Of a DNA stretch of 64,000 nucleotides, positions 3,871 to 64,000 are shown piece after piece. The stretch is from Moniliella sp. 'wahieum'. Its lineage: Eukaryota. The translations under genes and the position numbers were made by a program. The notes under the pieces were generated by a model, which was not told the origin of the DNA, searched no databases, and saw only the letters and a program-made list of their open reading frames with translations. The stretch lies in NCBI GenBank assembly GCA_003971905.1, contig RSEE01000038.1:62001-126000 (forward strand), read 5' to 3'. How positions within the stretch are numbered: the stretch's first letter is position 1; every line of letters starts with the position of its first letter.

Positions 3871-3936
3871 GGTGATTGGTGACCGGTGACCAGTGATCGC
3901 CACCGTGGCTACCGGTTACCGGCCTTAGGCCTTACC
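3871..3936. repeat. Heptamer quasi-palindrome island (GGTGACC x2, GGTTACC, CCTTAGG)
   Basis: Read directly from the sequence. Confidence 0.8.
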
Positions 3937-4550
3937 ACCAGTGTCTCGACTAGGGATTGGCCATTTCAAATTTCAGGGTCCGTCGCCGGCCGGCAGCCGG
4001 CAGGCCAGCGTCCCCGCTGGCCGCTCCCCCGCGGAAGCGGGTGGGTGTGGCCACCAGCCATTTCCTCGCCCTTCGAGCTAGTCCGGTGCCTGCTACCGTT
4101 CTAGACTGGATGGCCGAGATCTTGCACCTACCCCTCTACCCAAAAGGCATCCTAAGGCAGCCGTTGTTTCGTGTTCTTCACCCCGCCGTCCTCAGGATAA
4201 GACACTCGTATCCTTTGCCACCGAGGGCATTCCGGCAATGATCAGAGCAGCCCCAAGGCGCGACTGGCGTTCAACATTGCTACCCTAAGGCGTGCACGCT
4301 AACTTGAAGGCCTCTTTCTCATCAACAAGCCCATCAATAACAGGTATTCTCTTCACACTCACTTGGATCGTTCACATCTAGGCAATGTATTTCATGGGGT
4401 AGGCCATACAAGTCAAGCGCGCCCAATAGGACTCGGAGAGTGGGTCACAACATGACAGTTTGCAGGGCAGACTTTGTACATTCGCATAGTCAACGTTCAA
4501 CAGCGTCAGAAATGTGTTTGCTTAGACCAGGGGACAAAGAAGACTGCGCC

Positions 4551-6081
4551 CTAGAGGTAGGTAACCTGGGTCCCCATCCTCAGTGTGTCCCACACGGCCG
4601 CCACGGCGTTGGCGAAAATGGAGCGCGAAGGAGGTAAGGTTGGTCCGGAAGGAGGCGGGCGCCGACGGAGTCGCCAGATGATCGCCAACACAATGCCAAC
4701 AAGGGGCACAGAGCGGGCACAAATGGCCCCCACCGGGCAAGAACCTTGGCTAGTGCCGTCTGCGACACTTTATTATCCACCTTGGCGGGCGAGGAGCTGG
4801 CTTTTGATGTAGTAGGGGTGGCTTCGCTCCGGTCGCGTTCCCTGTCCCGGGCATGGTGCCGCTCCAACGTTTTAGAGATGGTGTCCCTGCTCTGGGCAAA
4901 ACTGCCAGGGGGCGAACGTGGGACGCTATCGCTTTTTGGCCGAGGGCTGGGTTGGAGCAGGAAGATGTTGTTGACCGGCTGAGCGCAGAGATGGGGTGCT
5001 TGCAATGGCAGCCTTGGCAGCAACCGAAGCCGAAAGGGCAAGCTCCTCAGATCTTCTTGCCTGTTCGTCTGCCACCGCCGCTTGAACCCGCGCCGCAGCC
5101 AATTTGACTCTTTTCTCCCGATCCAAGGATGAACCATGTTCTTTGGCGGAGGCAAGGAGAGACTGAAGCCTGCTTTTTGTCATGACTTGTGCTCCATCCT
5201 GTGCCTCCTGTCCTTGCTCTTCCTCGCCCTCAGGGAGACGGGAAAAACGGACAACTTCCCATGCATACTCCCACTCGGCCATTCGTTTCCCCGCACCTCC
5301 ACCGCGTACAACTCAACAATCCGCGCATACCACCGGCCTTGTCTTCTTCTGCGTCGCTCATGGCTCCCAGATAGGCCTCTGACATGTGCCGTGCAGCGCG
5401 GTAGGAGCCCATGGGCCCATCTGTGGAAGCAGTAAGCGATTGCGGCTTGGAGGGCGATGGTGCCGCATCACCCAAACTCAGAGCAGCGAGTACACAGGCC
5501 ACCACACTTGGGGGATGTGCGACGGCGCCCGCTGCGTAGCTGGGTAGGAATGATCGCATCATGGTCGATGATATGGGTGGGCGCAAAAAGGAGCAGGTGT
5601 CGTTCCATAGATGGGCAAGGATTGCATACTGGGCCTTGTCCAGTAACTTGGCAGCTGATTCCCTAGCGGCACGCACCTGGTCATCCGACACGTTCGAAGG
5701 GACATTCAGTGTAGTGGAGTGGAACTGCGCAAGGTCTGGACCAGTGAAGCACGAGTGGGATAGGTCGTCGCATAGCACGTGAGACGCAGAAGCGCGAGCG
5801 CGCCGCCAGCTCCGGGGTTATACTTGCGGCAGCAGGGTCGAGGGATCAGACGTGGCCTGGAGGAAGGCAAGTTCGGCGCCAACCAGAGCTTGGCCCATTT
5901 GCTGGTGCACCACAAACGCTCGCGATGCGCGCGAGATGAGCCGTTGCACTGTTGCGGCGATGGCGGGTGCGGGTGGCGTACAGGGTGCAGCGATGGAAGG
6001 TGTGGAGAGGGAGGCGGTGCTGCTTTCAAGGCTGCCTAGGCTTGCACCGAGCCCGTTGACCATCAGCGCTGAGCCAGCCAT
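4551..6081 (-). CDS. PEX26: Peroxin Pex26-like tail-anchored peroxisomal protein; frameshifted
   Basis: RASRAFV near the N-terminus, EWEYAWEVV internal motif, C-terminal hydrophobic segment VPLVGIVLAIIW followed by basic residues, and terminal VWDTLRMGTQVTYL*, which resembles the fungal Pex26 C-terminus. Pieced together from ORFs 5818-6153, 5230-5778, 4926-5282, 4580-5155 and 4551-4733. Confidence 0.7.
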
Positions 6082-7117
6082 GGTCGTGGTCGCAAGCAAG
6101 ACGGAAGGAGATGGAGTGACTCGTGAAAGGATGTGGGGACCACCGGCTGTCAATCAGGCCGAGGCGGCTGGCGTTGAACGTTCAGATGAACGACGAATCA
6201 GATCTCGGAGCGCGTGAACGGAACAGTCAATATTCAATGTTCAAGTTAAACGCCGTTAATGCGTGAACGCGTGAACGCAGGCAATACTGATGCGTGCATG
6301 ATGTCGATGATCCAATTGGCATTGCCGATACACAGCTCTGCGGCTCCGCGCTCATCATCACCAGGGCCATACTCGGCCGTACTCCGTCTCGGGGTCGGGT
6401 CTTGTGCGCTGTTTTTCTCGCTTCTGAAGCACAGCAAGCGCCTTCTTGGATACCACCACAGCAGGATTCATGCGCGATCTTGCCGCGAGCTATCATCGTC
6501 ACTATCTGACTTCCCAACCCTCAGCACGCATTTTCCCCTGTGACGTTTATCCCATGATCGCGAAAAGCCGCAACCCCTTCGTCTGGCTCGGATCTCTGTC
6601 TATAGTTTCTCCTACAAGGTGAGTATACAAAAGATGGCTTTTGTGCTCATTCCATATTAAAGCTCGCTGTACTATTGGGCCTATAGATCCCCCTGTTGCC
6701 CATGTAAGTCCCCTTCAAAGCCACACCGTTTCCTTCCACTACTCCAGCGACAAAAATAGTCTGGACAATCCGCTCATCGTCTTTCCAATAGTGGTAGATG
6801 TAATTTCACTGCGTGAAACTGACGTTAGCCACCCTACTACTCGAACAATCTCTACTACGCCGCCCACCATGAGGACATCAAGATAAGCCGCATGCGAACT
6901 GTTCGCCCTAACTGTTTGGTGGCGGGAATGGGTGGTGCTCGAGTCCATTGCTTCATTGCTGTAATACTCAGACGAATGTCAGGTCCAGTAAAAGGACAAC
7001 CACCCCCCATGATCCACAATATAATGGGCTAACAATCAAGCTCAGGATTAACACAATTTCGATTTCCATGAGAGTGGCTACCTATATCTTCCATCTCGGA
7101 CCCATCGACGCACGCGT

Positions 7118-13272: not shown

Positions 13273-15989
13273 AGTGATATGGACGGCGGCTGTTGGCGGC
13301 GGAGGAGCGAAGCCGGGAAGGGAATGGTGGATGGGATCTGAGAGAAAAGTGGTTCGCAGGGTAACCAGGAAGAAAGCCTCCGGGCAGCACACTGCTCTGT
13401 GTTGTGTGGTTGCCGCTGGTACGCGGCAGACATTGGCTCAGCAGCGGTGCATGGCACCAGCGGGCATCGGCGTGCACATGCGCCCACCCCTTCCCGGCTG
13501 TGGGTACTGCATGGTGACCGGTGACCGGTGACTTGCGGCCCCGTGCCTGTGCCTAGTATTGCATTTGCAGCCTGTCCTAGGCCCCATGCCCAGATCGAGC
13601 CCGCCATGAGTGTGTCACACTGGGGTAGAGAAGGGTACGAGCCAGGTGTAGCACCAAGACATCGCCCATGTGGGGACGGAACAGGCGCGTCCGCCGTTCA
13701 CGCGCACTGCCCCCGCGCTCAACCCCTTGGAACTAGTGCCGGCGCCGCAGAGGCGGCTGTTTTTGGGCCAATACGCAGGCCGAATGCCCGGAGCGGCCGA
13801 AGTGAGCACACATCCTGCGGGGGGTGAGACATGTGGAGCTCCGCACCCGGATAAAGGGCACTGGCACAGTGGGGGCAGGCACTTTCAAATTTCAGTGGAG
13901 GGGCCGGTGCAATGGCAAGATTGTGATACATGTAATTGCAGGCGGGGTGGCCGGTCGGTGGAAGTCGAGTCTCACATTTGATCTCAGATCTCACCACTCC
14001 CTGGTAGCTTAGCAAGCGCTTAGGCCTTACCCGTTACCCGTTACGCGTTACTCAGAGCTCGGTATCCGTACTCAGTACCGGGCCACACCACCGCGCGAAG
14101 CATGATGGCCACGGTCACACATCGGGGATCACGCATCACTAGATCATCGAACACTCAAAGTGCATCACGCGCATCACTCCCTCCGCCCACACGGGCCAAT
14201 GCCTGGGCAGCACACGCCCTGATGCGCCGCTGCAATGATTAATGAGGGTACCCAACCGGAGGCAAAATGCAGCCCAATGATCACGCAGAGGGTGCATAGA
14301 AGACATAGGCTGGCATCAGACTGCCCGCTGCAGTGCAGCTCTTTTTTCCAGGCGCGGCGAACTGCAAAACTGTTTCTGATGCAATGCGGCGCGTTCATTT
14401 GCACCATTGCATGATTTGTACGATCTAAGAGTCGATGATTGATGATCGAGTGATCGAGTGACAAAACGATGAACATATGCGTTGAAAGTTGAACATTCCG
14501 TACGCCCAGTATTGTATACTCGCGTGCTATTACAGTCCGTGATGCTGTAGCGGAAATGCTGAGAGGAAGGAGCTAAGCGCTACAAGCGCCAATAAGAGAA
14601 AGACTATATAGAAATCAAGCTGGTGAGGCAATAATGGACGATGCGGCATCTGGCAATGCAAACTGGTATTAGGAAACTACCCACAAACAACTATATAAAA
14701 GCCAGCAGTATAATCTGCATGCTATATGGGAGGGCAGGAAGCAGGACCACACCTTTTGTTTTCTTTCCATATCCTCACACGCACGACACTACGTTGACCG
14801 AGAAGAACTTGAACGTATTACACCAGTTTACGCCTGTATGTCCTCGCCCCCGCCCCCCATTCTGTTGCTTATATTGCCCCCCCCCTCACCTATAAGCAAC
14901 AGCTGTACCTGTCATGGATGGGCCCCGCCTGGGGGTTAAAAAGGGTACAATCCCTTAGTGGTCCTAAGGTCGATTCGCGGTAGTTGCGTGCTTGAGCTGT
15001 GGTTGATGCGTCCGACGCGGAGCAAGGGACAATGAGCGGCCTCTCAGCGTATATATAGCAGAAGCGGCTGCAGAAGGTTGTGTGGCAAAAGACCTCGTGT
15101 GCATCGGCCTGGGCAGTAGTAACGTGTCTGAAGCCTTCGGGGCGCAGGGACGGAGGGGAGTGGCAGCGGTGGACAAACACCTCCCGCATTAGACTGGGAC
15201 TTGAGACGGCGTGGCTGGAAGAGGATCCACACCGCTGGACTGGGGCTTGCCTTCGACGTGGCTTCAGGAGGTTCACACATTTGATACTGCTATAGCGACA
15301 TGGGAGCGGAGAGACGGGAGCGGCAAGCCGAGGGGGGCCAGCGAGAGGAGGCGGCCAAGGGGGGACGATGTGGCTTGCATTAGTACCTGATCAATTGGCG
15401 AGGACGGGAGATGAAGACGCCAATAGACCATCATGGGGGGAAACCCACGAAGCATTACTTACAGACAGGGACTAAGAGGGCAATAATGAAACAGAGAAAT
15501 ACCGGGTAACAGAAGGGGAGAACAGGGGGGACTCTTGCCGCTTGGGCAACCTAGAAAGTAAGGTGCAACCTAGAAAGGTATGGTAAGCGTGCGTGGGAAG
15601 ACTACGGTCATAAAAGGTGCTGACAATTCGGTTGCACGATTATAATAGCCACCAACTTCTACTTGTTGGGCATGGGATGACGACTGTTGCCGCGCGGATA
15701 CACAGGACTGGTTGCCGTTTGGGCCTCCGCCTGGTAGAGGTTGATGGGAAAGGGTTCTGCTGGACTTGGGGCAGAGAGCAGGCGAGCCTCAGTTCGGGTC
15801 GGATCAGATCAGCTCCGATCCTCTCGCTTTATTGGGTAAGTTTTTCTCCTCTTCCACACTCCAATAAGGAAAAACAGGAGACTGACACGGCATGTCACTA
15901 AACTCTCTCATTGATGAGAAGCCATCGAGGCCGGTCAAATGAGACGAAGCCTGCTGAACCGGGCGGAAGTCCATCACAAAATCATATAG

Positions 15990-16099: not shown

Positions 16100-17497
16100 T
16101 GGAGAGGCTGCCCCCACTTGCATTTCTCTCCATTTAATATTCATCTCCCTGTGCCTCTTCTCACCTCCACACAGCCTGTTGTGGGGACACTACTAGTAGT
16201 GCAGTGTGCCAAGAGCAAGCCAGACTCTCGCACTCCTACTAAGCCACTTTCACCCCACAGGCGCTATAGTACCTGATTCCGTCTGGACTGAAGCTGAGAC
16301 GCTCCTCTCCTTTTTATGCTAGTTACTTTATATTAAGTAGTATAGGCCACTCATAGCTTCGCCTTCCCTCTCTTCTCAGATCTCACTCCCGTCCACTCCC
16401 TCCTCCGAGTCCCACTCCGCTTGTCTCTACTTTCGCTCGCTCACCGGCCTCACCGGCCTCACCGGCATCAGCAAACAATATAGGGTTTGTTCTTGATTGC
16501 CGTTTCGCTTCGCATCGGCATCCGGCTACATATCAGGCGGGTTTAGGCGTCACGCAGCGCGCGTCACGCGCTCAAGCTCGCAACGTCCAGCGTACATTCA
16601 AATTCGGCAGCGCTCTGCACGCTCCGGTACGGACCGGAACCGATCGCTCTCCGAAGACTGAGAGACAAAAAGGATGATCTCCCTGGTGGTGGCGCGTCCA
16701 TGCAGTTGCACCCCATTCTCTAATCCCCCGTCGGGTAAAGTCTTCCCATGCAACTGCCCCAGGCTGCCATCCTCTCTCCTCTCCCCCTATTATACGCGAG
16801 ATTTGTAATGTAGACAAAAAGTTCACGCGCCTATACTACTCGCAACACGCAACCTGTAACCGTTGTAACCAATGTGTAACCCATATGACATCCTGACACT
16901 TTCGCATCCCATCTCGGTCCGACTTCAAATATACACTGTCGTCGGACAGCCGCGCGACTTCCTACCACACCCGCAGGAGTCTATATTAGGACGCCTGACC
17001 CACTCTTTTGGGTCGCCATGATCTCTACTGTGCTTTTTGCGTTACGGCTTGGAGGTCTTAATGCGAGTCGAACATTCCCCCATTCAAACTTCATCAGCAC
17101 CCTCACCCCCCCCAACACTCACTCTCTGCCCCCAAACTTGCTTAAGTCCGTGGACCAAAGGCTGAGCCGCGATGCAGTCTTGGCACACGTTGTTCTGTGG
17201 TCTACACGCGCCACTCGCATCACCATGTATAGACACATTGCGCCACCAGACAGACGAAAGGGCCTCCCCGGTGGCTCCGTTTGCCACAGTATGACGATGC
17301 TCTCATATCATACAGGTGTTCTCGCTCAGTGCTTCGCCCGGCCTCGCCGGCCACTGTGAGGCTAATATAGTAATGGCCGGGCCCTTTTTTCACACTAATG
17401 CAAAGACTGCGCCATTGCCTCTCCCACACGTCTTATAAAGCACCTTCGCGCTCGCCAACCCTTAGTTGCCCTACAACAAGTCTCCTCCCTTCATATT

Positions 17498-19531: not shown

Positions 19532-20717
19532 TATTCCTCTCTTATTGATTTGAGAAGCTTGACACATACCTCGCATTCTCCGTGAGGCCGTGAGGGCCTT
19601 CTCCACATTTTTGCTAATTGTGACGATATTTTCTGATGTGCCTCTTCTCATCTTTCTCTCTTCGTGGCATATGCTTCATTCTTTTTTGTTGTCAATGCGT
19701 CAACAGAGCTTGTCGGTTTTGCCCTTTGTTCTTGTTGCGCAGCCTTCTGTCTTGTCAACATGACTCTCGCACACACAAGACACTCTCTACTGGACCCTAG
19801 CATATGCGCACGTACAAAGACCCTACACTCTGTGGCTCTTCCTATACATAGCCCCTGCAGGAGGCTTTTTTTTGCAGTCTGCTATGCATGTTCTTATGCA
19901 TATATGCCGCGTTAATTAAAAGGCCCTGACGCCACGGAGGTTCCGGACCACCCCCACCCCCTCCAAAGTCTCCGCTTCGGCACCACCTGGCTCTCGCTCC
20001 CCACTCGCTCTCCCCCCCTGCCACCGAAGTGACTGCAAAGACCGACGGCCCTCCATCCCCCTCCCGTCAGCGTATGTCGGGTCTCTCGAATCTTGCGTTC
20101 TGGCGGCCCTTTACCTAATGTACAATCATATCGCCCCTGGAACATGTGGATTGTGGCAAAACAACTCCCGACTACAAGAGGCACGCCCAATCAATTAAGT
20201 CCGAACCTCACCCCGTTACGGACATAATATGGCTGCAAACGGGGATGTATTACGCCGCCACGGTCGCGAATAAACGATGCTGGAACATTTTGGAAGCTGT
20301 ACCGCTTGCCCAGCGTTTAGTACACAGAGGTACTGTTGCACTGTGACTCACAGCTGACCCCCCGTGGTGGGCACACTCGATGATCGATAATCGTAAAGTA
20401 CTCAGACTGAGTGCCAGTGTGCACCGAGTATACTCAAGTGCCGAGTGCGGGGTTGGTACATGAGCATGACTGCCTCTGTGCGCACCAGCGGGGTTAGCGG
20501 CCTCAGGGGCATGGCACTGCAGGGCACAGCGCGCAGTTTAGCGCCCCAGCCCCCCAAACAGGCACTGGCCCTGTGACTCCCTGCCGCAGCCAAGAAGGCG
20601 GGGGGGCAGTACATGGCCTATCTCCGCCGCCCACCCACAAACCGCATTCCTGCTCTCCGGAGGCCGGAGTGGCCATTTCTTGCCCGCCCTCGCCACCATC
20701 TCCTCCTCCCCTCCACC

Positions 20718-28500: not shown

Positions 28501-29859
28501 CCCGTTAGCTCTCGGGGGCGCAACGTCATGGACACACACACATTCGCAACGATCCAACTGTGGAGAAAGAAGACGAGGCACAGTGCAGGAGGAAGGCTAA
28601 GTGTATACAGACTACCGAGTGATGGAACCTGGAGCATTCGGATAATCACAGGAATGGAGGTGGACCACACATTGAGGGGCTCGGTTTCCAGAGGGAGGCG
28701 GTAGTTGCATACCGGAAGGTGGTATACTTGAGGGAACCGCGCGCCTGTGGAACGACAGGAAAAGAAGTTGATTCCATTGTTGGAGCAAGCGGAATGCGAC
28801 GAAAGAACCCCAAGTACCACATAAAAGAACGTACTCAAGAGCCACACTCTTTCCCCTCTGTTGGTCATGGGACAAACGCGCGGATACAAAATACTACGAA
28901 GACGTCGCGGTAGGCATGACGTTCGAGCATTGCGGAAGGAACTAAATGACGGTTTGCATTGGAGGTATGTTGCGCTTGTCTTCTACCAACACGCGCTCAT
29001 TCTAGTGTATCCACGCGCGCTATATACTTCTGCTAACGCGTGGCAGGAGAGCCCACAATAGCGGAGGGTCCAGACCCTCCACCGATTTCCCAAACGGGCT
29101 GGCACGAACAGGCACCACATATTCTGGATGAGCTCGACGTACGATCCCGGATAGGCGCACCAGCGTTTCGTTGTCCCAGGCTACAAGCTCTGTAGTAAAA
29201 TATGAATGCAACCTGCATTAGGCTACGGGTAGGCCTTAATTACTGTAGCCTTCGGCTTTTAAGATGATTCGAGATTCGAGATGGACGTTGAAGCTGAAGC
29301 TATATATATTTGAACTGAAGCTCTTGCAGCTTGAAGCTTGAAGTTTGAAGCTACTCGGAACAACGTATATATCGCTGATGTGGTTGTGTGTGAGGCGTAT
29401 GTGAGTGAGCGCTCAGGGTGGTATTATAGGTGGTGCTGTGGCAGCGCTTTCACAACAGGATGCTGTGAGAGGAACGACTTCCTCTTTAATCAAACGGTCC
29501 CGTCTGCAACTCTTCACCATGCATCCTCCAACATCAAATGGCGCACGTAGTGATGCTCATGCACTCATGCATCATGATCGACTTGACGCGTGGTCGATGA
29601 TCCCCACTCGGACCCCACCAAACCCATCTCGTCTGTACGGAATACGGCTTACACTATACTACGTTGTCCTGCATGATGCGTGGTCTTTTGCCGTCTTAAA
29701 CATCGTCAAACGACGTTCAACGTTCATCGAGTTCAGCGTTACGCGTTCACGTTCGCGTTATCTGGGATCTAGTGACGGTTATCCGGGTATAGGAGCGGCT
29801 GGTCGTAACAAAACAATAATTGATCTATGAGGAGTGGCTAGAGCTAGTGGCTATCCAGG

Positions 29860-30120
29860 CTTCAAGCTTCAAGCTTCAAGCTTCAAGCTCCAAGCTCCAA
29901 ATGTGACATGTGACATGTGTGACTAGTGACTAGCCTAACGCGTAACGGGACTGTTGAACGTTGATTGCCGGCTATAGAGAGCGACTATAGTCACTAGTCA
30001 CTAGTCACTAGTCACTAGTCACTAGCTAGTCACTAGTCACTGGCCACATAGTATAACAACACTCGTAACTATTAGGTCTTAGGCTTTAGGCCTTAGGCCC
30101 CTTAGGCCTTAGGCCTTAGG
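29860..30120. repeat. Heptamer quasi-palindrome island: CTTCAAG x4, TGTGACA x2, AGTCACT x5+2, CCTTAGG x1+3
   Basis: Read directly from the sequence. Confidence 0.95.
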
Positions 30121-30588
30121 CAGGCACGTGTATATGTAGCGTGTTACGGTGGCTACGTAGAAGAGCTGCTGTACACGGAGTATTTCCGCAGTATTATGTG
30201 CCTTTTTGACCTTATCGATTGTCCACTCTCTTGCGTACATGTGGTAGTATATACTGAAGAGGGCCGTCGAAGCACTGACGTGCCGACGCGCTGAAGACGT
30301 ACACAATAAGCAAGTACATATCAGTACCACGTATGTATTACGTTCAATATATCCACACGGTCTACTCTATTTGAGAGCAGCGCGCACAGCACAGCATAGA
30401 ATGGACGCCATATAGCATCATCGCCAAAACATTGGCCCGACACTCTCACCGTGTTGTGTAGAGCACAGACCATCATGTCACCGGTCACCGGTCACCGGAG
30501 GTCACTCCTCTTCTGGCACCCCACCTGCACCATTTCCTGTGTTCCCCAAAGCGAATAACATTGTTATCTATCCGAACCCGCGTGTGAA

Positions 30589-39402: not shown

Positions 39403-41085
39403 GATGGTGGTCAATGGGGGAGGGGGGGGGGGGAGGGAAAGGTGCGGCCAGGAAGCGCACGCTTACAACTCAGTATGTTATAGGTGCGACAACAGGGACC
39501 GGCCGAACAACAGTCTCGAGTATGCAGCAGTTCGCAAGTGTGGATGTAATGCACCCACTGCGGCAGTGTTGCTCGCCGGCAATAGTATAAGCGCATTTCC
39601 CTGCAACAGCCACCAGCCGATTTCGATCCCATATGGTGACTGGCCCACCGCGTGTATAGTTAGGCGGCACTGCTTGTATCCATTCGCACTAGTAAGTATT
39701 CATCGGGGTAAAATTTGATGGAATGTATACAGAGTCCCTCTATCTCCCAACAGAGGGGTTAGCCACTTCCGTATTAAGACTCCCCAAAACGGAGAGGCTC
39801 CGTAGGTCAACCAGGGCTAAAAGAGAGGAACAGGTTAGAATCAGCCTGATTAAGCTGGTGGTCAAGGTTGTATGCAACTGTCACATGGCGGGGCCCAGCC
39901 TGTGAGGGCCCACCCGGGAGTGCTAATAAATGATACGATCTTCCTTATAGGAAGACGGTAATAGGGTCGACTTCCTGTATGTTCATACTTGGGCGTTTGT
40001 TGGAGAAGAAACAGCGCGGCAAGGGACAAAAAGGAGATACCTTTCGGAGTATAGCAGAGAAGGCTGCTTGCAAGGCAAAAGGCTACGTATAGGCACCATC
40101 AGCATGGAAAGTATAGTATAATGTCTCTGAAGCCGTTCGTACTTGGGGACGGGAAAAGAGGCGACCAGCGACAACGCTGCCCAAATTTGGATTGAAGCGA
40201 GAAAAACACGGATTGGAGCTGTGAGACTGAAAGTTGCGACTGGAAAAGACTCCACGCATTAATAGGGTAAAGCCGAACACTGAGAGACTGATAGTCGCAG
40301 AGCGCGCTCCGTCCTTACAATGGTGAAGAACCATGGATCAAACGAAGAGGACATGAACAGGGAAGAGGCGACTGTCGTCGCCAATTAAGGATACGTTGTA
40401 GCGTGGGTGACCGCGCCCGGAGACCACAGTATACATGTGATTGTACGACCCCTCCGCGGCCATGGCTTACTAGTTGTGTGGGTAGGAAACGAACCCTGTT
40501 AACTGACTGGACTGACAAAGCATCGATCTTTAGATTGGAATGGATCCGCAGACAAAGTCAAAGCCTCCTGGTGCCAGGAGCAGGAATATGGAAAGGGATT
40601 TGGAAAAAGCTCTGTTGGCCCACCGAGCCATTATGCTCGCCTCTTTTGGGACTTACAAGAGTGTATACACGGGTTTTTCGATGTCCCACCACCGGCCAAC
40701 GTTCGTCTTCATCGCGTCGTCAACGTTCGCCCGCACTGCTGCTGCGCATGTGCGGGAATGAAAGTGGATCAGAGCTCAGACTGAGCGCTCAGCCTGAGTG
40801 GGCTCCGCTATGGCTCCGCTGGCTCGCCAACCACAGGGGTCGCTTTTCGAATCATATCACGATGTTGAGAGGGATGGATCGCGGGGGTGTAGTGTGGCAA
40901 GCACTGATGGCGCGGTTCCGCGAGACTGGCTGGACTTTGTATCCGCTGCCAGCTACCTGTGGGTACGCAACTTGCCTGCGGCCCGCCTTGCCTGTTCGTC
41001 GGAGTTCGGTGGTGCCGGCGGTGCCGGCGATGCAGCGACGGATCATATAGGCCAGATTATCGATGATGCAATGATGATAGTGATG

Positions 41086-41213
41086 CATGATGCACGGTGC
41101 ACGGTGCACGGTGCATGGTGCCTGACGCGTGACGCGTGACGCCACACGGGCATTGCAGTATGGTGCCTGAAGCATGTGCATGATGCATGATGCATGATGC
41201 ATGATGCATGATG
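41086..41213. repeat. Heptamer island: CATGATG, CACGGTG x3, CATGGTG, CCTGACG, CGTGACG x2, then CATGATG x5
   Basis: Read directly from the sequence. Period-7 phase is unbroken over 41086-41141. Confidence 0.95.
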
Positions 41214-42191
41214 CAGGGCGGGAGGGTGCGGCCGCCTTTAATGAGGCTGGCTGGGGCCCAGCACCCCCAGCGTCGGCCCGGAACTGAAAAGGAGGCCAGG
41301 GGGTGGTAAGAATTAGTAACGGACGCATGCCCATGTGAGTACCTGGGAGCTTCCCACCACTGCCTGCCTGACGTTCAACGTTCAACGTGGACGCACCTCG
41401 CGTCTCATCGTCCCATCCTGCCTTGTTTCGTCCTTGGGCCTCATCAGCCCCAGCCTTGGTTGATCCCCTGCCCAGCCCCCTCCCGCTCATCCCTCCCACC
41501 CCTTTCCCCACTCGCCCGCCATGGACACCCTCTCTAGCGGGAGGCGCAAGCTTCTGGCTGATACCCATGTCCTCCCTCCCTCCACCCCTGACGCCGGCCA
41601 CCCATCCTCCGCCCAGCAGTCAGCGCTCCTCCTGTCCTCAGCAGGCTCACCAGACAACCCAGAAGCACTGCAGCGCCCATGTTTACCTTCAACGCGAGTC
41701 GGAAGCCTCTCTTCCACCCTCTCGCTCGTCAGGCGAGGGTGTGCCTGGAGTAGCAGCCGAACCGAACCCCGACGACCCGCCTCCGCGCCCAAGTCTCGCC
41801 CCCTGGCCCAGGGCAACCGCTAATGGGATCAGGTGTCGCATACCTTGACCCCAACCCAATTGGTATCTTCAGCGACTACTCCCATCACCCACACAGCGTT
41901 ATTTGCGAGATCCGCAGAGCGGGGCTGGTGAAGTCGCGCATTACCGTACATGAAGTGAACAAGGTAGGTGTTCTCCAAGTCCTTGCTGTGCATGGCAATG
42001 AGCTGACAGGCGGCATGTGCATGAATAGGCGAGGAGAACAGACCGGCCCTTGTGGAGCTGCAAGCCACTCACCCCCTTCGGGATCGGAAGGACAATGTCC
42101 GTTTCCTATGCAGGCGAGGTTGTGGCAGTACTGTCGAGGGGAAAGGGTGGCAAGTGGGAGTGCCATAAAGCTGAAGCAGTGGAGAAAAGTG

Positions 42192-45140: not shown

Positions 45141-47691
45141 TGTGGGATGGACAGAGAAACAGGCACAGTGCAACGGACGGAGGAGTCAGCGAGCAATGCA
45201 CTAAACACAGTCAAGCTGGCGGCAAAAGGGAACACCAGGAGGACGTGGATGTGATGCGCTGGGATGGGTGAGGAGGGCGAGCGATATGGTGGGAGTAACC
45301 CTCTCTCCCTCCCCACTCGTCGGTGGCGCGTGCGCGGGGTTTACCAGCGCCCCCACGCCAGACCCTGAGCGGAACAGTCACCCACACGCGGAATTGACAC
45401 GCGTGAATTGGGTGTCATATGCAGCTTGACCTCCCTCAACAGGAACCTAACCCATATAACAACCAGTAGCATGTAACATGGTAGTAACAGGGAACTAGCC
45501 CTGTAACCTCTGCCCCACCTCACGCCTCAGATGTCGATGAGGCTTCAGGGCCTCAGATCCTTCAGAACTCTTAGGTGTGAGGTACCTAATGGCAACAACC
45601 AGCAAGTACACAAAAGCTAACTATAACCCCGCGACATGACACGCAAAGCTTTTCTCTCGTCAATAGGAAGTGCGACTAGTGTGACCACACACATATGTAT
45701 CGTTTTCCATGTGGGGGCTGTTTTCTGCTGTACTTGCGTATACAGCCTCGTTAAAACGAGAGCAGGACGAAGCCCTCTATTATACTCTGCATACATTGCG
45801 CCCACATATGTTGACGGTTTAAGCTTTAAGCTTGATGTCACCGGGGAAGGCGAGGTGAAACCGCTGAGAGCCCGGTTGAGAGCCCACCATCACAAGCTCT
45901 GGATCCCCCCTTAATTAGTTGCCTCAATGATGGTCTCGGTTTCCCCGCCTCGAAAGATTTTTTCTTCCTGTTGGGGATACGTGCGCTACGCCCTTGTCGG
46001 TGCCATCATACATATAGCTGTGACGAGGAAGTGCCATCCGATGATATTCATTGATAGTACGGCAGGGGGCTTATAGTTAGCTGGCTTCGCCTGCTTCGTC
46101 TGCTTCGTCTGCTTCGCTTGATTTTAACGTCAACGTTCATCATCAAATGGGATGGGGTGGAGATAGGAAAAAGGGAAACTAAAGCAAAGGAGTTCCTCAA
46201 AGCCCTTGTTAAGCAGCCTGGGGGGGGGGGGGCGCTTGAGAATGTGAGAAATGGGTCGTACTTCGCGTTAAGACGAGCCCACTATCCCTGGCACCACCGA
46301 TCCTCCTTGTGCATTGGCTGATACACATCAGCTCTGGGGCTGTTGTATCCGACTCTGCCCTATGTTGTGCTCCCATGACAGGCTCATCTCTCTCTCTTTG
46401 GTTGGAAAATCGATCCATCATTGATCTCTCCTCTTTCTGGCCTTTTGGCCTTATCATATACCCAGCGGCGCCCCGTAGGGTACATGTAATAAGGTCCTAC
46501 ACTCCTTATAGTCTGCGCGGCACACCTGTCCTCAGGTCTCATAGGCCCAATGCTTCTCACAACTCAATCGATCTAGAATCACACACTATAATCCTCCAAT
46601 CTCTCTTCAAGCTTCAAGCTTCAAGCTTCAGGCCACTCCAAGGTCTTCGAGGCGGCATTGTCCTACCAAGATGCTAAAGTATGTAATCCAGCAATCCAGC
46701 ATGTGGTCCATATGATGATGCTGATGAATTTGTTTTGTTCTATTAGCGTAGTGGACCGTCTCGATCGGGGGCATTATGCGTAACACCTTTTGTGCTTATA
46801 GTTTTCAGTAGGTAGTTCTCCTGCCTGCTTGAAAGGTTGAAGCTTGAGCGTTCAGGATGTGCGCTTGTTGGGCGCTTGACGTTTGTGCCCCTGATGAGAT
46901 CACTGCAGCTCAGGCTGAGGCCTTGCCAGCTCACCCGGAGGCCTCACAGATTTCAGACCTAGGGGCGCTGTGACGGTCACCACCCATTTGTGGACAGCCA
47001 CACGAGAGTAGTTGTGTCTTACTATCACCGCACTGCAAGTTTCACATTTGAAGCCGAGCAATGCTGCTTTCAAACTCGGCTCTGGCCATGTCACATGTCA
47101 CCTACGCACGTTGTCAGTGTGTGCCCCATCGTTCATCGTTTGACAGTGCGAACGATCGCCACCGCTGTATAGACCATCCCACTTTTGGCGGGGTCGGCGT
47201 CAGGCGCGAGCTCCGATTTACGATGCACATCATGCGAGATGGGATCTGTTGCTGAGCAACTCCTCAGCATCGCCAGGGTTCTCTCGCACGCTCGCACGCT
47301 CGCACGCCCCGCGTTCTCTATATCCACATCCCGCTCCATCAGGTCACACCTCTGTTGTGCCCACCAGGCCACACTACAGTTGGTGCACGGGCCGCTCGGG
47401 CGCACAACCATTAGTTTGTTGCTGGGCCCAAGGTTCATAACCGCCCTAAGGCCCAACTGACCCCACTACACCACCACTGCCCCTCCCTTGCAATTCACAT
47501 TGCCTGGTGCGCTAAGAATTCGTCTCGCATCCGTTTGGATCTCCCTTCCGAGTTTGGTCGTGTGCCATAGCATGTATGCAACGCATTTGTCTGACGTATC
47601 CTATGGTGTGGGGGTATATAACCTCCTTCCTCACAGGCCTCCCAGGCTCCTTCCTCACCACAAGTCTTCAGTCACTTCTAGCAACACCAAC

Positions 47692-48834: not shown

Positions 48835-49279
48835 ACACCCCCTTCATGCTTTTTAACGACCTGTAAACACCACTCCATACACTATTACATGGATTTTGCC
48901 ATCCTATCTTCCAGTTATGTAGCTGTAAAAAAGGCAAGTATTATACTTTAGTCGATATATACCAACGGCTAAACGCTTTTGGCTTTAACCAGTGTGAGGG
49001 CGAGAGCCATTCTGGCCGGGCAATGCTGTACGTTGTGAAGAAGAATATACTAATGCCGCACCGATTTGTCCCTCTCCCACTGGAAAAGGCCTGAAGAGCC
49101 TCGTTGAGAGAGGGATCAAGTTGATCCTACTTCATCGATTTCATCATGCACATGTCGACCAAGTTTCCGTATCTACCCTCGCGCTACATGCAGTTTTTAG
49201 AGTCACTGTTCACGTTGAGGACGTTGAGGCGAGCCCCGTTTCCCCCCTTGTTGATTTAACGGCTTCAAGCTCAATCGGT

Positions 49280-49333
49280 GATAATCGATCATCGATCATC
49301 GATCATCGAACACCTACCTGGTCACCGGTCAAT
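49280..49333. repeat. Heptamer island GATAATC GATCATC x3, GGTCACC
   Basis: Read directly from the sequence. Confidence 0.9.
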
Positions 49334-50131: not shown

Positions 50132-50696
50132 TCTTGTTCCCCTTCAGTGACTTGATACTGCTGTGCTGTATCATTTGTATTCCCGTTATTCCGGCGCACA
50201 TGTACTCGCGCCCCACGTCTCTTTACCAATGCCCTGATGAATCTCAGATCTCATACTAGACTGTTTGTGTTGCAAACCTTCCAAAGATGAAGCGTCTGAA
50301 AGTACTCTTCAGGAGGTGATCCCTACCATAATCATCTGAAGAACCCTCCTTCAGCTTAAGCCGGAAGTGTCACAGGTCTTGCGAGCAGTACTGGCGGTAG
50401 GCGATGGAAATGGTATTCCGATCCAAGGAGAGCTATAGACCTGTGTGGAGTCGTGAGAGGCTCGGAAGCCAGAACCATTGTTAGCACCGGAAGCCGGATC
50501 ATTTTCCCGCGATACGCCACCCGTGCTGGGCCTCGTGTCACATGTCACTGAAGGTCGATGGGCTTTGGACTTCTTAGATCTTAGGGTAGACAACAGGACG
50601 GTTATGCAGACAAGGAATCAAGAAGATGCAGTCATCACAATCTCGTCTGCTACAGAGATTAAGCTGCAGGGGTTCTATATTAAGGGGGCAAAAAAC

Positions 50697-50792: not shown

Positions 50793-51457
50793 CTGATGAA
50801 CGCAAAAATGCAAGCTCAGATCAGTTGTACATATTCGGCTCAAACGTGTGACGCTTGCTTTGCTTGTGGTGGGATCAATGATGTCGCCAAAAGGTCAGCC
50901 CGGTCAGGCATCAGAGCCTCATAACTGGTAACCGGAACCCCTTACCTCAGGCCCCTCATGCCGGCCGAGGTCGGGCTCCAGTGCGAGTTAACATCCTGAC
51001 AGCCAAAATCGAAATATGCGCGCATACACTAACCCTCTGCTGGAGTTGCTCAGCGAGCGCCCACATGGCGCCCACGCGCCCACATTCCATACCGCGCTTA
51101 TTGCGCGCTTATCTAATGGCGATCGCACCATCGGTTCATCCCGGTCACCGGTCAGCGGCCAGCGGTCACCGGTCAGCGGCCAGCGACCGCTCATGCCATG
51201 AAGCCTGAGGAAGCCTCAGCCTGTGGCCTGTAACCGGTAACCTGTAATGCATGTTCGCCACCCCTGTGTGTGGTAGCCAGTCGCAGCGTGGCTGGCGCTG
51301 ACAATGACGTGACTGGTTAACCCCACCTGTCCCGCCTCTACCCCAGTTACCGTAAGCGCGCTATCCATGGCGGTGGCGGGGAGACCAATATCTCCCTCTC
51401 CTGTCTTGTCTCCCCTCCCACTACAGCCTCCTTGTCTCCCCATTGCCTCCTCTCACC

Positions 51458-54479: not shown

Positions 54480-55703
54480 TAAGATCTAAGATTTAAGATC
54501 TTTAGTGACTATTATGGTGAGAGCTACGACAGGTTATAGTAGTCAGTATAGTGATTCCAAACTAATAGATGACTTCAAGCTTGAAGCTTGAAGCTTCGTG
54601 CATCATGAACGGTGATCGGTGACCGGCTGAGGGGCTCCTCAGGTCCTCAGACCCTCCTCAGAAGTCCCAGGGCCTCGCTAGTCACTGTGGGGTTGGCGTT
54701 GCGTTGGCTGGGGAATTGGCGGAGCCGCTGAGACGCTACGCGGACCCTGAACGACCCTGAGTACTGAGTACTGAGTCTCAGGCTGCCTCAATGCCTCAGC
54801 CCTAAGCCATAGGCCTGTCCGAGGTCTCAAGATCTGAGAAGCGCCCCCAAAAGGGCCTGACAAAAATTGGGGTATAGCTTGGTCCCACAATCGTTCACCT
54901 GACCTATACGTTAAACGCTTTTGAAGACGGTTCTTCACCACGTTCACCGGTCACCTGAACGGCATCGTACTCACATGTCACATGTCACAGCCACAGCTCA
55001 CACGCCTATATACCCCACATGCTTACGCGCTCATTCGGACACGACTCACGGTACAAAAGAGATTTATTAGTTACCTCCGGTTACCGGTCACCGGTCACCT
55101 AGTATTAGCTACCTGTAACAACATCCATGACATGTGACATGCATGATCTGCCTGCCACTTGTCCACTGGAGGGAAAGAACTGTGGGACCAAAAAGGCCCA
55201 AAATATAAGCCGGCGCAGCTGCAAGTCACACGATCGTCGACCTGGGCCATGTTCCATGTTCAGAATGTAGTGTGGGGGACGATAGAGTGCCTACCCCTCG
55301 CTGAGCACGCCCCTTTGCCTCCTTTCAATCCCCGGCCGCTCCAGTGCCTCCTCAAGCCTCCTCCACACATGTTCTTTCTTCTGCAACCGCGCAACCCCTT
55401 GTCCCCAGCACCAGCCATCTCACCCTTTTCACGCGGCCTGCGTCGCCAGATGTCATTAATTTAATGGGTGATGGATGAGTTAGTCGGTGACTAATGACTA
55501 GGGAATCGATGATGCGGAGACTCAGTGATCGATGATATGTGATGTCGGCGACAGGGTTACATTAGCTAAACGGTAACATTGGACGTTACTAAGTACTAAG
55601 CGTGAGCGTGAGCGCCGACCGCTGAAGTGCTGAGGCGCTGAGGCTTGGAGCTAGCATATCGCAACCACCTCAAGCTCTTCAAGCTTCAAGCTTTAAGCTT
55701 CAA
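54480..55703. repeat. Large heptamer-rich intergenic island (CTTSAAG, ACTGAGT, TGTCACA, GGTYACC, CCTCAGG-type units)
   Basis: Examples at 54573-54593, 54756-54776, 54976-54989, 55079-55099 and 55677-55703. Confidence 0.9.
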
Positions 55704-57138: not shown

Positions 57139-57838
57139 ACAATCGCTGGCCCCACAGCCATGACTCGCCCCCATTCACAACCGGCGCGCACTTGACCAGC
57201 TCACCCCCGGCCTCGTAACACAGAGACATCCTTCCTGCCTCAACCTTCACCTTTAACACCGGCACCGGCGTTCCCGGCAACTGCCAGGGCGGCGGACACA
57301 CCCTGGGCCTGATAGTCATCCAGTTTCGCAGCCTCCTCTATCTCCTCATCCTCATCAGTCGTTCGGCCTTCATTCCAACAGCAAATAATGTTGAATTGTG
57401 TCCCACTAACAACCAACCAAACAGCAACAATCAGCAACCGTGATGTGCTGTCTCGTACGTGGGCACAACTGTGTGTGCTTTTACAAATGATCCACTGCAT
57501 TTGTTGAGGCTAATACGAGATTTCGCGTCACTTTTTCCGAGCCCCCCATGTCACATATGCATGCCAACGTTGTCTGTTGTGACGTGCACTTCATTTTCAC
57601 CCTCCATAGTTGGACAGATGTCATGAGCGAGAGCCTAGCATTTGGCAGTGTGCCTCGTACGTCCTTTGCTCGTCACGTTTTTTTGGCAAAGGCTATATGA
57701 TGGCAGTAGTTGCTGCACACTACATCCAGTTTGGAAACGAATGAGGGGGGGGGCAGATGGGCCTAGTTGGCGGGTGGGCCGTGTTGACCTCCTGATTTTG
57801 GGATGGGACCTCGAGCTGGGAGCGTGCGCGCAGGTGGC

Positions 57839-58870
57839 GCTGAGCGCGCTGAGCGCTGAGCGAACCTCATAGACGCAGCGTTTTTTGTCTGTGTCCTGCC
57901 CCTGCGTTAAGTTTTTGTTCAAGCTTCAAGTCGGCAACACAGTTCTCCGAGGTGTATGGAACTGGAACTAGTAACTACAACTGGTAACTAGTAACTAGCA
58001 ACTACTAGTAACTAGTAACACAATCAGTAGCTATGAACTAGTACCTAGTTGTGCCACCTAAGGCCTAAGGCGATATATAACGCTCAAGGCTTAACATCAT
58101 GTTAATGCATGTAACATGCACGTAACATGTAACACACAGCGCACTTTGTATGTATGACGCACATGATGAAACCGTTCCAGTTACTGCACCACGGAACACG
58201 TATGGGGGAGATTGTGCTGTGAAGCCACGGAGCCCGCGGCACGCGTAGGGCCTAGATGGGTCTGTTCGAGTCTGACACATCGGATGTATGTCCACGGCCT
58301 GTGCGGCCTTGGCGCCAGAGCTTCCCGAGCGCATCTACAGCCTCAGGGCCTGTCGTGCTCACATCACATATCACATGTCACAATGTAACTCATGCATATC
58401 ACCTGTCGCTGACATGGCCCCTAAATTCTAAACCTGGGAACTGAGACTCTGTTCTGAGATGGAGAAATGAGAGATAGGCCGCAGAGGCCTGAGGAGCCTG
58501 ATGCCTGTCGCCCTGACCGTGACAGGAGAAACACTGATGTTTGTTATCGTAGCTTCAAATGCTTCACATGTCACAATGTCACAGGCTACCTGTCGTCACA
58601 GTCACGGTTCGTCACGAGGCCCTGTGGAGTACCGAGTACGTGGAGTAACAGGAGTAGTACGTTATGCGTAGTACGTAGTTTTCATGGCATGCTGAACGCG
58701 CGTTGACGTTGAACGTTAACGTACGTTGAACGTACGCTGATCGTTGACATTGACAGGTAGTACGTAAGGAACGCAGAACGCGTTAGTACTTTTACAGTTT
58801 CTCGCGTGTTGACATGTTGACATTGCCAGGGTTTCTGAACGCTCAAGTTGAGCACGTTGGACGTTGGGAC
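57839..58870. repeat. Large heptamer-rich intergenic island (GCTGAGC, AGTAACT, CCTAAGG, TGTCACA, GTTGAAC units)
   Basis: Examples at 57839-57861, 57968-58020, 58057-58070 and 58700-58735. Confidence 0.88.
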
Positions 58871-59170
58871 ATCGTTTTTGCGTAAGTAAAGGAGAAGGCC
58901 AGTGTCGGCAAAAGGCGGAACGGGGGGTACCTGGTACCGGATGAATTGCTCGCACACCTCAACTCTCTGAAGTTTGAACAGTGTCAATGCGGTAGCTGGT
59001 CTCAGATCTCATCAATCATCTGGTAGTGAAGCTGTGTCGTCCGAGTCCTCTCTCTTTAACGATAACACATTTTCTTTTCTACAGCTCGCCTTCACATATC
59101 TTTGAACCATTCGTATGCGGTGAAACGGTTCGTTGGAGAGGCATGCCATTACAGATGCGTGCCAACGTTA

Positions 59171-62100: not shown

Positions 62101-63528
62101 GGCACGCATCGACGCCCCAGAGAGTTCAGGTGGCAAGTCCATGTGGGACGCCTGGGACGGATATACGACTTCGGGCGTGGCAATACGACTTCCCTCGAAG
62201 GAGTGCGAGCAGGCGTAGAGGTAGCGGTAGAGTTATCGCCACCACGTTTGCGCCTCTCCCTTTCCTTTTCTCGCTTCATTTCCTGCCGGGCATGGCGAGC
62301 GGCACCCTCACGGAGGCAGTCAGGAATGACTCCTGCTCTTTCCTCTCCCTTGAGGCGGACGGGGAACGCCGCATACGCCGTTCCTCTGGCGTACTCGCCC
62401 TTGATTCGCGGTTGAGAATGCCCCGGCGAGAATGGGAATGGGGCTGGGAACTCGTTGCAGGGGTCGCCCGCGGCCACGACCCCGATCAGGCTCGTCCTCA
62501 TCTGCCCTGAGGGCAGCTAACTGCAAGTCCCGCGCACGGATTTCCGCGGGGATGTTGGCTAGTTCGCTCTCGGGCGGGGGCGCAAACCGTGGGCGTGTAG
62601 GGTCCCGATTGAGACGCTCAGCATGGGACCCACGAGTGTGCTGGCCCTCTTTGGTTTGATCTACAGAGGAGCCATGGTGGGAGATGATGCGCGCAGAAAG
62701 CCATCGTTCTCCGGGATCACATGACTGTCCAGTTTGACAGCCGGTTGTTCAACGCGTTTGACCATCTGTCGTGAGAGCAGGTTTGCGGCCCCACTTTTTT
62801 TGGTTGCCGGCGGAGGACGCGGGGTGTTTACCGTCAGGTGGGCCGCTGTGCCACTTGATTCTGGGACGGAGAATGCGGATAGCCGTCTGGTCTGAAGGAG
62901 AAGGGTGCGTCTCGTTACCCAGGTGCGGAAGGGCTGGAAGAACTCTTTCTAAGTATGTCGCCCGGCGCAGGATGTGATGAGTCGAGATTAGACGATGACT
63001 GGTCACTGGGTTCATGCTCGTTTTCGCCCTTGCGTGCTGGGTTGGCGCGATTGTGATGCTTGTGCCGCCGAGGAAGCGCTGGACTCGAGCTACCTGAGCC
63101 TGCTGCTGCTTGTACACCTCGCTGGATGCGGCGAGCGCGACGGCGAATCTTGGGGTCGTGGCGTACAAGGTGCTCAAAACGCTTGCGGAAAAAATAGCGG
63201 CGGACAAAGATCATGATACAGCCTACAGTGGAGATGTTACCACACCACATGAGAACATAAAGAATGCTCTGCTGGAAGCCACTAGCCTGGGACACGTTGA
63301 TGGTGGTCAGGCCGGTCACTGTCATGGCCGATACGCATTGGAAGAGGCAGTCGATGTAGGGAATGAAGACCTGGCCGTTGGCAGCATAGAAATGCCGCTG
63401 GCGACGAGGGGCGCAAAGACAACACAATTACGTGGATGCGAAAGAAATTCAGATAGCGAATAGCGCCGTACAGCATGCGCAGCTTCAAACGACGCAACAA
63501 GCTGAGGCGGTGCTGGGTTGTCCGTCAT
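59171..63528 (-). CDS. TRK1: Trk family K+ transporter; intron ~60459-60519, many frameshifts, 3' end uncertain
   Basis: LNFFRIH; YIDCLFQCVSAMTVTGL; VRRYFFRKRF; EYRALDLL; SAYSNSGMSLVD; LILAGNTAFPIFLR; FLLDHPRRCF; AVRAAGF; VMMYLAAFPIAMSVRSTNVYEERSLG; FELTSAYGTVGLS; HRGLPVAIDRAIMLP. Gly is present in all four pore loops. Confidence 0.95.
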
Positions 63529-64000
63529 GGTCGGGGGCTAGGGGGGCTCGTCCTCGGTCTTGTGCTGGTATTCGGGCGGCTCGGGGGGAGAGCCGGGGAG
63601 GCGGCAGGCCCGCCATCAAGAAAGGGAGGGGAGACATGAGCCTGGGGGGGCAGAAGCGGCGGGGGGGGGGGGGGGATGAGGGCGGGGCGCTGCGCTGCGA
63701 GGGCTCGGCTGGGCGTGGATGGGCACTGGGGAGCAGAGTCGCTAGTCACTGCACGCCCATCGTGGGCGCGGCGCAGACGGAGGGGAGGAGTGGAGGGAGG
63801 TGGAGTGGCGGTTCGTGACGGGTGACAGTGACACGAAGAGCGACGGCAGCAGCTGCGTTGCTCACTAGCTATCACTACTCGTTTTGATTGCTAATTCAAC
63901 ATTGCAGTGCGAGTGGCTCGCTGCCATGCCGGGGTGCGCCGGCGCCTCCAGCTCCATGGCGCTCGGCAAGGCTGAGCGCCTGAGCGCTGATCCTCTGAGA

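Follow-up and report, generated by a model that had tools for sequence, protein, structure and literature searches.

Many short tandem arrays of 7-bp units, unlike one another in sequence but built to a single design, are present in the intergenic DNA of the stretch analysed here. This stretch, referred to as the window, is 64,000 nucleotides long; all coordinates are positions within it, and the analysis of arrays and scars is confined to it unless metagenome contigs are named. The array units have the form xyTNAy'x', an odd palindrome centred on T-N-A in which a prime denotes the complementary base, and they are generated by a recurrent event that adds 7 bp. The window is intron-bearing eukaryotic nuclear DNA with a G+C content of about 55%. 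Among its open reading frames (ORFs), Pfam matches include a fungal Zn2Cys6 factor, SMI1/KNR4, an Ark/Prk-type kinase and a Ras GTPase, and further matches are to a TrkH transporter, an MFS transporter and an aspartate-semialdehyde dehydrogenase. The named best matches of the dehydrogenase are from Tilletiaria anomala (69%), Tilletia (67%) and Jaminaea (66%), with the closest match overall at 83%, and the best named match of the kinase is from Exobasidium rhododendri (48%). The source is accordingly taken to belong to the Ustilaginomycotina and to be exobasidiomycete-like.

Heptamer arrays and their palindromic grammar

Perfect tandem arrays with two or more copies were counted in the window and in 100 dinucleotide-preserving shuffles of it. 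At period 7, for which Tandem Repeats Finder also reports numerous rows, there are 51 perfect arrays compared with 3.6 ± 2.0 in the shuffles (maximum 10), a 14-fold excess. The adjacent periods give 78 arrays at period 5 (shuffle mean 51.8), 36 at period 6 (12.6), 12 at period 8 (0.9) and 7 at period 9 (0.2). An odd-palindromic rotation is possible in 38 of the 51 period-7 units (shuffle mean 0.36, maximum 3) and, when the list is read by eye, the centre is T-N-A in 36 of these, C-N-G in two, and A-N-T or G-N-C in none. The initial annotation of this DNA had proposed an excess of T-N-A-centred palindromes at period 7 and had named 21 array positions; the pattern is real and far beyond chance, and all 21 positions hold the units that were named.

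The same 6-bp palindrome recurs at a spacing of 7 in 30 cases, 27 of which start with A, at a spacing of 6 in three cases and at a spacing of 8 in none. Similarly, repeats of 5-mers ending in TNA peak at a gap of two bases (140; all other gaps give 6 to 36). As annotated, each of the 12 possible 4-bp palindromic cores containing C or G is in use. Two or more complete tandem units are found at 24 loci, 15 with two units, five with three, two with four and two with five. The two C-N-G exceptions are GGCAGCC (2.1 copies, 3989-4003) and CACGGTG (3.6 copies, 41091-41115). The latter array lies in register between arrays of CATGATG and CGTGACG, and Transib elements and RAG signal sequences have a terminal heptamer similar to its unit, a likeness that is probably coincidental. 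The arrays are given below without strand.

3878..3891, GGTGACC, two units in tandem
13513..13532, GGTGACC array, 2.9 copies
20379..20392, GATGATC GATAATC, two units with unlike centre N
29323..29352, CTTGAAG array, end units decayed
29859..29963, abutting arrays: CTTCAAG (four units) and CTCCAAG (two units, 29887-29900), TGTGACA, AGTGACT, CGTAACG, GTTGAAC
29988..30041, AGTCACT (five units), +4 junction AGCT (period-11 form at 30015-30036), then AGTCACT (two units)
30072..30121, CCTTAGG array with a +9 step, CCTTAGG CC CCTTAGG (30091-30108)
30477..30498, GGTCACC array, 3.1 copies
31426..31439, CATGATG, clean two-unit array with unrelated flanks
32988..33006, TCTCAGA array, 2.7 copies
41063..41142, period-7 super-array in register, CATGATG to CACGGTG (C-N-G exception) to CGTGACG
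41177..41215, CATGATG, five units, six TGCA cores
41371..41388, GTTCAAC, two units, three ACGT cores
45818..45833, CTTTAAG, extended single-event product
46605..46630, CTTCAAG, 3.7 copies
47087..47101, TGTCACA, extended single-event product
49280..49309, GATAATC, then GATCATC (three units)
51141..51185, single-event product GGTCACCGGTCA inside a 21-bp repeat (2.1 copies), a complete 12-mer in each copy
54573..54596, CTTCAAG CTTGAAG CTTGAAG, centre changing from C to G
54757..54776, ACTGAGT array, 2.9 copies
54971..54989, TGTCACA array, 2.7 copies
55079..55099, GGTTACC GGTCACC GGTCACC
55677..55703, CTTCAAG CTTCAAG CTTTAAG
57837..57862, GCTGAGC array with a +9 step, GCTGAGC GC GCTGAGC
57966..58019, AGTAACT arrays bearing indels
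58057..58071, CCTAAGG, clean two-unit array

At 51141..51185 the 12-mer GGTCACCGGTCA is held by each of the 21-bp copies, indicating that the larger duplication postdates the +7 event.

The elementary +7 event and its junctions

When perfect period-7 runs are ordered by length, their excess starts at less than two full copies. Runs of exactly 12 number 82, and 23 of these have a TNA-palindromic unit where about two are expected; 18 of the 23 fall into two mirror phases, (1,5) and (3,7), for which the expected share is 2/7. These 12-mers have the structure xyTNAy'x'xyTNA, with unrelated flanks. The structure occurs 117 times on the two strands together, compared with 0.23 ± 0.58 (maximum 3) in 100 shuffles, and the same pattern built on other centres occurs twice for A-N-T, six times for C-N-G and never for G-N-C. 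Isolated 12-mers, which have no neighbouring unit and in which the next two bases are not y'x', number 37. Single +7 events in the window include the following.

84..95, minus strand, CCTGAGGCCTGA
3923..3934, plus strand, CCTTAGGCCTTA
3964..3975, plus strand, TTTCAAATTTCA, AT-only arms
4490..4501, minus strand, GTTGAACGTTGA
6227..6238, minus strand, ATTGAATATTGA, AT-only arms
13883..13894, plus strand, TTTCAAATTTCA, AT-only arms
13982..13993, plus strand, TCTCAGATCTCA
14234..14245, plus strand, AATGATTAATGA, AT-only arms
16374..16385, plus strand, TCTCAGATCTCA
29565..29576, minus strand, CATGATGCATGA
29715..29726, plus strand, GTTCAACGTTCA
31543..31554, minus strand, TGTCACATGTCA
32838..32849, plus strand, GGTTACCGGTTA
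33267..33278, minus strand, GTTCAACGTTCA
49320..49331, plus strand, GGTCACCGGTCA
50242..50253, plus strand, TCTCAGATCTCA
50536..50547, plus strand, TGTCACATGTCA
50572..50583, plus strand, TCTTAGATCTTA
51231..51242, minus strand, GGTTACCGGTTA
54944..54955, minus strand, GGTGACCGGTGA
55128..55139, minus strand, TGTCACATGTCA
55588..55599, plus strand, ACTAAGTACTAA
55947..55958, plus strand, TGTTACATGTTA
57919..57930, minus strand, CTTGAAGCTTGA
58123..58134, minus strand, TGTTACATGTTA
58564..58583, minus strand, TGTGACATGTGA, overlapping the +8 form TGTCACA A TGTCACA
59000..59011, plus strand, TCTCAGATCTCA

The elementary event must be the conversion of xyTNArs to xyTNA-y'x'-xyTNArs, a gain of 7 bp that creates one new palindrome, xyTNAy'x'. 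Since r and s are unrelated to x and y, no palindrome is needed at the site beforehand; the event itself creates it, and the arms are always complementary because they are copied from each other and not because they are recognised. The initial annotation suggested that a single +7-bp process recurs under a fixed grammar, and this is borne out by the 117 12-mers and by the T-N-A centre of 36 of the 38 palindromic units. The further suggestion that pure-AT cores are lacking applies to the arrays, with AT-only arms at none of the 24 loci, but not to the single-event products, 4 of 37 of which have such arms. When the centre base N is compared between the two copies it is the same in 117 cases, the complement in five and another base in 13. 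As N is copied unchanged, it lies inside the duplicated segment.

Full nnTNAnn 7-mers are also found duplicated, with both copies kept, at gaps of 0, 1, 2 and 4 bases, and in the 12-mer class two junction bases of one copy are replaced. The bases between the copies were read by eye. A single extra base between non-palindromic 7-mers complements an adjoining base in five of five cases; two extra bases are the complements of two adjoining bases in four of six, as in CCTCACC-GG-CCTCACC and GTTGAGG-AC-GTTGAGG; and four extra bases give an exact fit in one of three, AGTCACT-AGCT-AGTCACT, in which both sets of complements are present. The complement rule is obeyed by 8 of the 12 period-8 arrays and 4 of the 7 period-9 arrays (also read by eye), indicating that their own excess over the shuffles comes from the same process. 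A few period-6 arrays resemble units minus one base. Interruptions within arrays are located at the x'|x joint, although this count is biased because interruptions within a unit would escape scoring. The palindromic junction bases agree with the hairpin-type end processing proposed in the initial annotation. The period-8 and period-9 arrays that follow are likewise given without strand.

6261..6278, period-8 array CGTGAAC + G, the G being the complement of the adjacent base
14443..14461, period-8 array AGTGATC + G, read by eye
19580..19595, period-8 array CGTGAGG + C
29556..29571, period-8 array ACTCATG + C, read by eye
55629..55644, period-8 array GCTGAGG + C
58807..58823, period-8 array GTTGACA + T
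63972..63987, period-8 array CCTGAGC + G, read by eye
16440..16466, period-9 array CCTCACC + GG, the GG being the complement of the last two bases
49212..49229, period-9 array GTTGAGG + AC, the AC being the complement of the first two bases

The targets reconstructed from the 37 isolated events show a mild symmetric preference, n-G-T-N-A-C-n, with y being G in 17/37 events compared with 705/2879 nnTNAnn sites, and r being C in 15/37 compared with 741/2879. A symmetric 7-bp logo together with a 7-bp duplication suggests a multimeric, dimer-like enzyme that cuts the two strands seven bases apart around N. The data therefore match the 7-bp logo nnTnAnn, which had been offered previously as the alternative logo for a target-site duplication (TSD).

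The scheme that had been put forward first was a hAT-type element with an 8-bp N-A-xxxx-T-N target, excision through hairpins with a one-base apex and loss of one junction base, and it is now regarded as highly unlikely. It does yield +7 steps and hexamer-N-hexamer arrays, and hAT hairpin chemistry is established in the part of PMC5499845 drawn on here. However, the scheme needs two A-xxxx-T hexamers in its minimal products, and both the 12-mers and the two-unit arrays at 31426 and 58057 hold one. The predicted hexamer-N-hexamer runs, of phase (5,3), make up 1/13 of the 13-long runs. A one-base apex would complement N, which is copied 117 times and complemented five times, and the joint is an even 4-bp palindrome, y'x'xy at x'|x, rather than an odd palindrome at N. 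In non-palindromic period-7 arrays, an A....T rotation was read by eye in 4/13, approximately the chance level. Moreover, the usual hAT target logo is nTnnnnAn, with a polarity opposite to that of nAnnnnTn.

Replication slippage alone, in which self-complementary units form hairpins, expand faster and so come to prevail as palindromic heptamers, is an improbable source of the pattern. Array units are indeed self-complementary save for the centre base, slippage accounts for the adjacency of identical unit variants (CTCCAAG twice at 29887-29900), and the super-array at 41063-41142 keeps its register. Nevertheless, slippage leaves unexplained the birth of the 37 isolated 12-mers at non-palindromic sites, the predominance of T-N-A over A-N-T (117 versus 2) and, in the +8, +9 and +11 forms, the complementarity of the added bases. 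The preference for period 7 is also left unaccounted for, as there is no smooth fall-off with period and a unit grammar is present.

Several other schemes were rejected. A PIF/Harbinger-type 3-bp TNA duplication is inconsistent with a duplicated segment of 7 bp and with the count of TNATNA (62, 15th of 16 classes), and a Tc1/mariner scar of TA plus two to three fixed bases is inconsistent with arms of 12 types and no TA-bounded constant scar. A 3-bp TNA duplication with a triloop hairpin predicted unlike palindromes abutting at a spacing of 7, of which none was seen, and 7-base tracts of palindromic (P) bases predicted alternation of N with its complement, against the 117 and five cases given above. 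A 5-bp duplication with one-sided P bases was given up for the symmetric 7-bp model, since both the +8 and the +9 forms contain complete 7-mers in duplicate. A 4-bp palindromic target with three element-derived bases, and the template-switch and flap models, were also worked through and rejected.

Distribution and possible origin

Of the 51 period-7 arrays, 31 lie in the 15,145 bp that contain no 100-codon ORF. Coding DNA is avoided, with none of the 38 palindromic arrays (inspected by eye) and none of the 37 single events inside the Pfam-supported coding ORFs, which total 10,092 bp, in agreement with the earlier statement that arrays are absent from confident coding sequence. After masking of the perfect arrays, the lag-7 signal is 0.285 in array-rich intergenic DNA versus approximately 0.258, and the value in other non-ORF regions is 0.259, which represents no signal. 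The residual signal indicates that decayed arrays also contribute and that the process is regional. Array-rich non-ORF stretches are found at 28983-30595, 54214-56025 and 56980-58684. Arrays are carried, for example, by the divergent intergenic region at 28.3-30.6 kb, between a kinase gene on the minus strand and a nitroreductase gene on the plus strand.

An intergenic location, as in this divergent region, could be expected of cis-elements under selection, such as promoter DNA that excludes nucleosomes or sites bound by a dimeric factor. Such a role is very doubtful as an explanation of the arrays, since their 12 arm sequences have only T.A in common as a recognition sequence, many arrays are in decay and other non-ORF regions are free of them. 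In addition, selection does not account for the anatomy of the 12-mer.

The interpretation favoured here, held at about even probability, is that excision of a cut-and-paste DNA element, or of a small element family, left the arrays as scars. Insertion would involve a 7-bp staggered cut centred on T-N-A, at a target nnTNAnn with a mild GTNAC preference, leaving the element flanked by xyTNArs on either side. During excision each flank would be sealed as a blunt-tipped hairpin, and host enzymes would open the hairpin two bases from its tip to give a 4-base 3' overhang composed of two flank bases and their complements, r s s' r' at the left end and y' x' x y at the right. At an ordinary target these overhangs would mismatch, and one would be removed whole and the other filled in, giving either xyTNA-y'x'-xyTNArs or its mirror xyTNArs-s'r'-TNArs, each 7 bp longer than the original site. 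These two products are exactly the mirror classes of 12-mer that are observed. Should a palindromic target be hit later, both overhangs would be y'x'xy and cohesive, and could anneal and be ligated to add one more perfect unit, so that arrays would lengthen in clean +7 steps and offer more targets. Other processing of the overhangs could produce the +6, +8, +9 and +11 forms, with more of the overhang retained in the last three. An event straddling the edge of an array would create a new unit with different arms, which would account for the abutting unlike arrays at 29859-29963 and 41063-41142, and replication slippage may later gain or lose units. What the sequence itself shows is the 7-bp duplication, the T-N-A rule, the complementarity of the junction bases, the variants of the junction and the avoidance of coding DNA; the scheme postulates hairpins, loss of one overhang by clipping and, most of all, an element.

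A number of observations weigh against an origin in excision. Within the window, no identical nnTNAnn pairs flank a segment with 12-nt terminal inverted repeats (at most two mismatches), no dispersed repeat family is present besides the arrays themselves, and no transposase family or domain was found by Pfam in the 59 scanned of 65 window ORFs of at least 150 amino acids. The non-coding DNA, some 15-20 kb, holds approximately 37 single events and 24 arrays, a scar density that to our knowledge far exceeds that of known hairpin-type elements. Non-ORF stretches of about 1 kb at 6215-7280, 15391-16356, 19529-20497 and 49965-50881 are without arrays or lag-7 signal, and the +3 product TNATNA is not enriched among the 16 centre classes. 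The scheme also requires the loss of one whole overhang in most events, a step that is assumed. Finally, the shortage of AT-only arms in arrays relative to single events is weak evidence for the cohesive-end step, as it is not significant alone and could also be explained by the GTNAC preference.

The lack of any element, terminal inverted repeat or transposase in the 64 kb, the very high scar density and the clustering of events in certain intergenic regions, as expected of a hotspot-bound nuclease, are each compatible with a route that needs no element. An endogenous or domesticated nuclease or repair pathway could make 7-base staggered breaks at GTNAC-like sites, with the ends hairpinned or copied back before end joining. 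This route is considered rather unlikely. Two full copies of the 7-mer with hairpin-type bases between them are the remnant expected from an inserted segment, whereas a plain staggered break with fill-in, when worked through, gives a simple 7-bp duplication and not the dominant 12-mer, and simple non-palindromic TNA-centred duplications are few (four, read by eye). We know of no enzyme that makes hairpinned 7-base staggered breaks at GTNAC-like sites. Taking the excision reading in its wider form, it is possible, although judged somewhat below even probability, that intergenic DNA in an exobasidiomycete lineage owes a visible part of its bulk to an undescribed, very active hairpin-forming element or derived nuclease, one with a 7-bp GTNAC-centred target and with scars that serve as new cohesive targets and so give rise to palindromic heptamer repeats.

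Occurrence elsewhere and relation to known systems

A metagenome scan with AAGCTTSAAGCTTSAAGCTT as the query gave at least 121 loci (L001-L121; 651,156 bases), each chosen for carrying an array. Among the 121 listed loci none showed homology to the window by blastn, and tblastx gave no match. In these loci, 12-mers with arms other than CTT comprise 27 with TNA centres, 9 with A-N-T, 17 with C-N-G and 11 with G-N-C, where about five are expected. The 27 TNA-type 12-mers are concentrated in a few eukaryote-like contigs (six in L079, four in L047 and three in L087), and other TNA-type arrays are present in a few of the listed loci, these three and others, at a density far below that of the window. 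L079 and L047 appear eukaryotic, and one of six ORFs scanned gave a match, to a protein kinase. These counts hint that other organisms may follow the rule in weaker form, but no more than hint, since the loci were selected for arrays. Arrays of AAGCTT-S-AAGCTT-S-AAGCTT occur in at least 121 public metagenome loci, many of them, by impression, low in G+C and without any other TNA-type array. Such low-GC contigs suggest that the AAGCTT-S unit also arises by other routes.

That the window arrays are an artefact of sequencing or assembly is scarcely credible. The pattern avoids coding ORFs, keeps its base-pairing rules over 12 arm types and decays mutationally, a weaker form of the rule is present in independent metagenome contigs, and no basecalling error is known to us that would yield it.

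A literature search, with most subscription journals outside its coverage, turned up neither TNA-centred palindromic heptamer arrays nor the 12-mer scar for any organism, fungal or not, and six array strings searched verbatim matched no paper. The scars would thus be a form of hairpin-type transposon scarring that is new in its target, its stagger, its self-reinforcing building of arrays and its unusual density. The birth of short tandem repeats is poorly understood, and here one defined event turns unique DNA into a repeat seed that then invites further events. If a transposon is responsible, dozens of scars per 64 kb would be possible without a nearby copy, the target logo, stagger and hairpin chemistry would be readable from scars alone, and footprints would feed back on the choice of target. 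Tandem repeats would then have a new, rule-governed way of arising, and past transposition would have left a legible record. Standard microsatellite surveys usually stop at 6-bp units and would miss a 7-bp pattern, but xyTNAy'x'xyTNA is a simple signature, and counts of it in any genome would map the occurrence of the process.

Other features of the window lie outside the heptamer grammar. These include an 18-bp repeat in three copies at 53151-53204 and the 12-bp repeat GCGAGAAGAAAA in 2.9 copies at 42192-42226. Runs of G, 12-15 long, are found at four places (34672-34703, 39406-39453, 46212-46240 and 63645-63693), with G-rich flanks that are loosely alike. On the minus strand at 50697-50792, ARAGORN made a tRNA-like call of 96 nt, of undetermined type and with a four-base anticodon, aata, which may be false or may represent a degenerate or intron-bearing tRNA.

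In the MULE, hAT, Transib and RAG systems, hairpins are formed on flanking DNA, that of Muta1 being of 43+43 nt, and hairpin opening may be the work of host enzymes, Artemis among them, after which end joining leaves footprints, according to the part of PMC5499845 used here. End joining after hairpin opening is proposed likewise for the window scars. Compared with hairpin-on-flank footprints (hAT Ac/Ds, Tam3, Ascot-1 and Hermes; MULE Muta1; Transib) and with V(D)J coding joints, the window scars keep both target copies, and likewise have P bases complementary to the flank ends and a few alternative junction lengths. The footprint details of Ascot-1 and Ac/Ds in this comparison are general background. 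The window scars have a 7-bp duplication centred on T-N-A, in contrast to the 8 bp of hAT (nTnnnnAn), the 8-10 bp of MULE and the 5 bp of Transib, and their junction palindrome is even with N uncomplemented, unlike the one-base apex of hAT. Furthermore, one outcome, +7, is dominant, and the scars stack in tandem arrays at a density unreported for hairpin-type elements.

A 7-bp TSD is shared with two basidiomycete elements, hAT7 of Pucciniales and Kyakuja of Laccaria bicolor (PMC12730594), which are compared by TSD length alone and which, in the part of that source used here, are known from rusts and agarics and not from Ustilaginomycotina. Within the window there is no hAT7 or Kyakuja transposase, nor are there Kyakuja termini (5'-CA..TG-3'). 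The Tn10/IS10 hotspot is nGCTNAGCn, and HIV-1 integrase has a weakly palindromic GTWAC target. Both are, like the window target, symmetric targets of a multimeric DDE enzyme with a T-N-A core, but these systems make 9-bp and 5-bp duplications respectively, do not excise through hairpins and are not fungal. Micro- and minisatellites that arise by slippage resemble the window arrays as short head-to-tail repeats in non-coding DNA, and slippage probably alters the copy number of the window arrays too. The window arrays differ from them in that unrelated units share a single period, a single symmetry and a constant T.A pair, together with a birth product that is made in one step.

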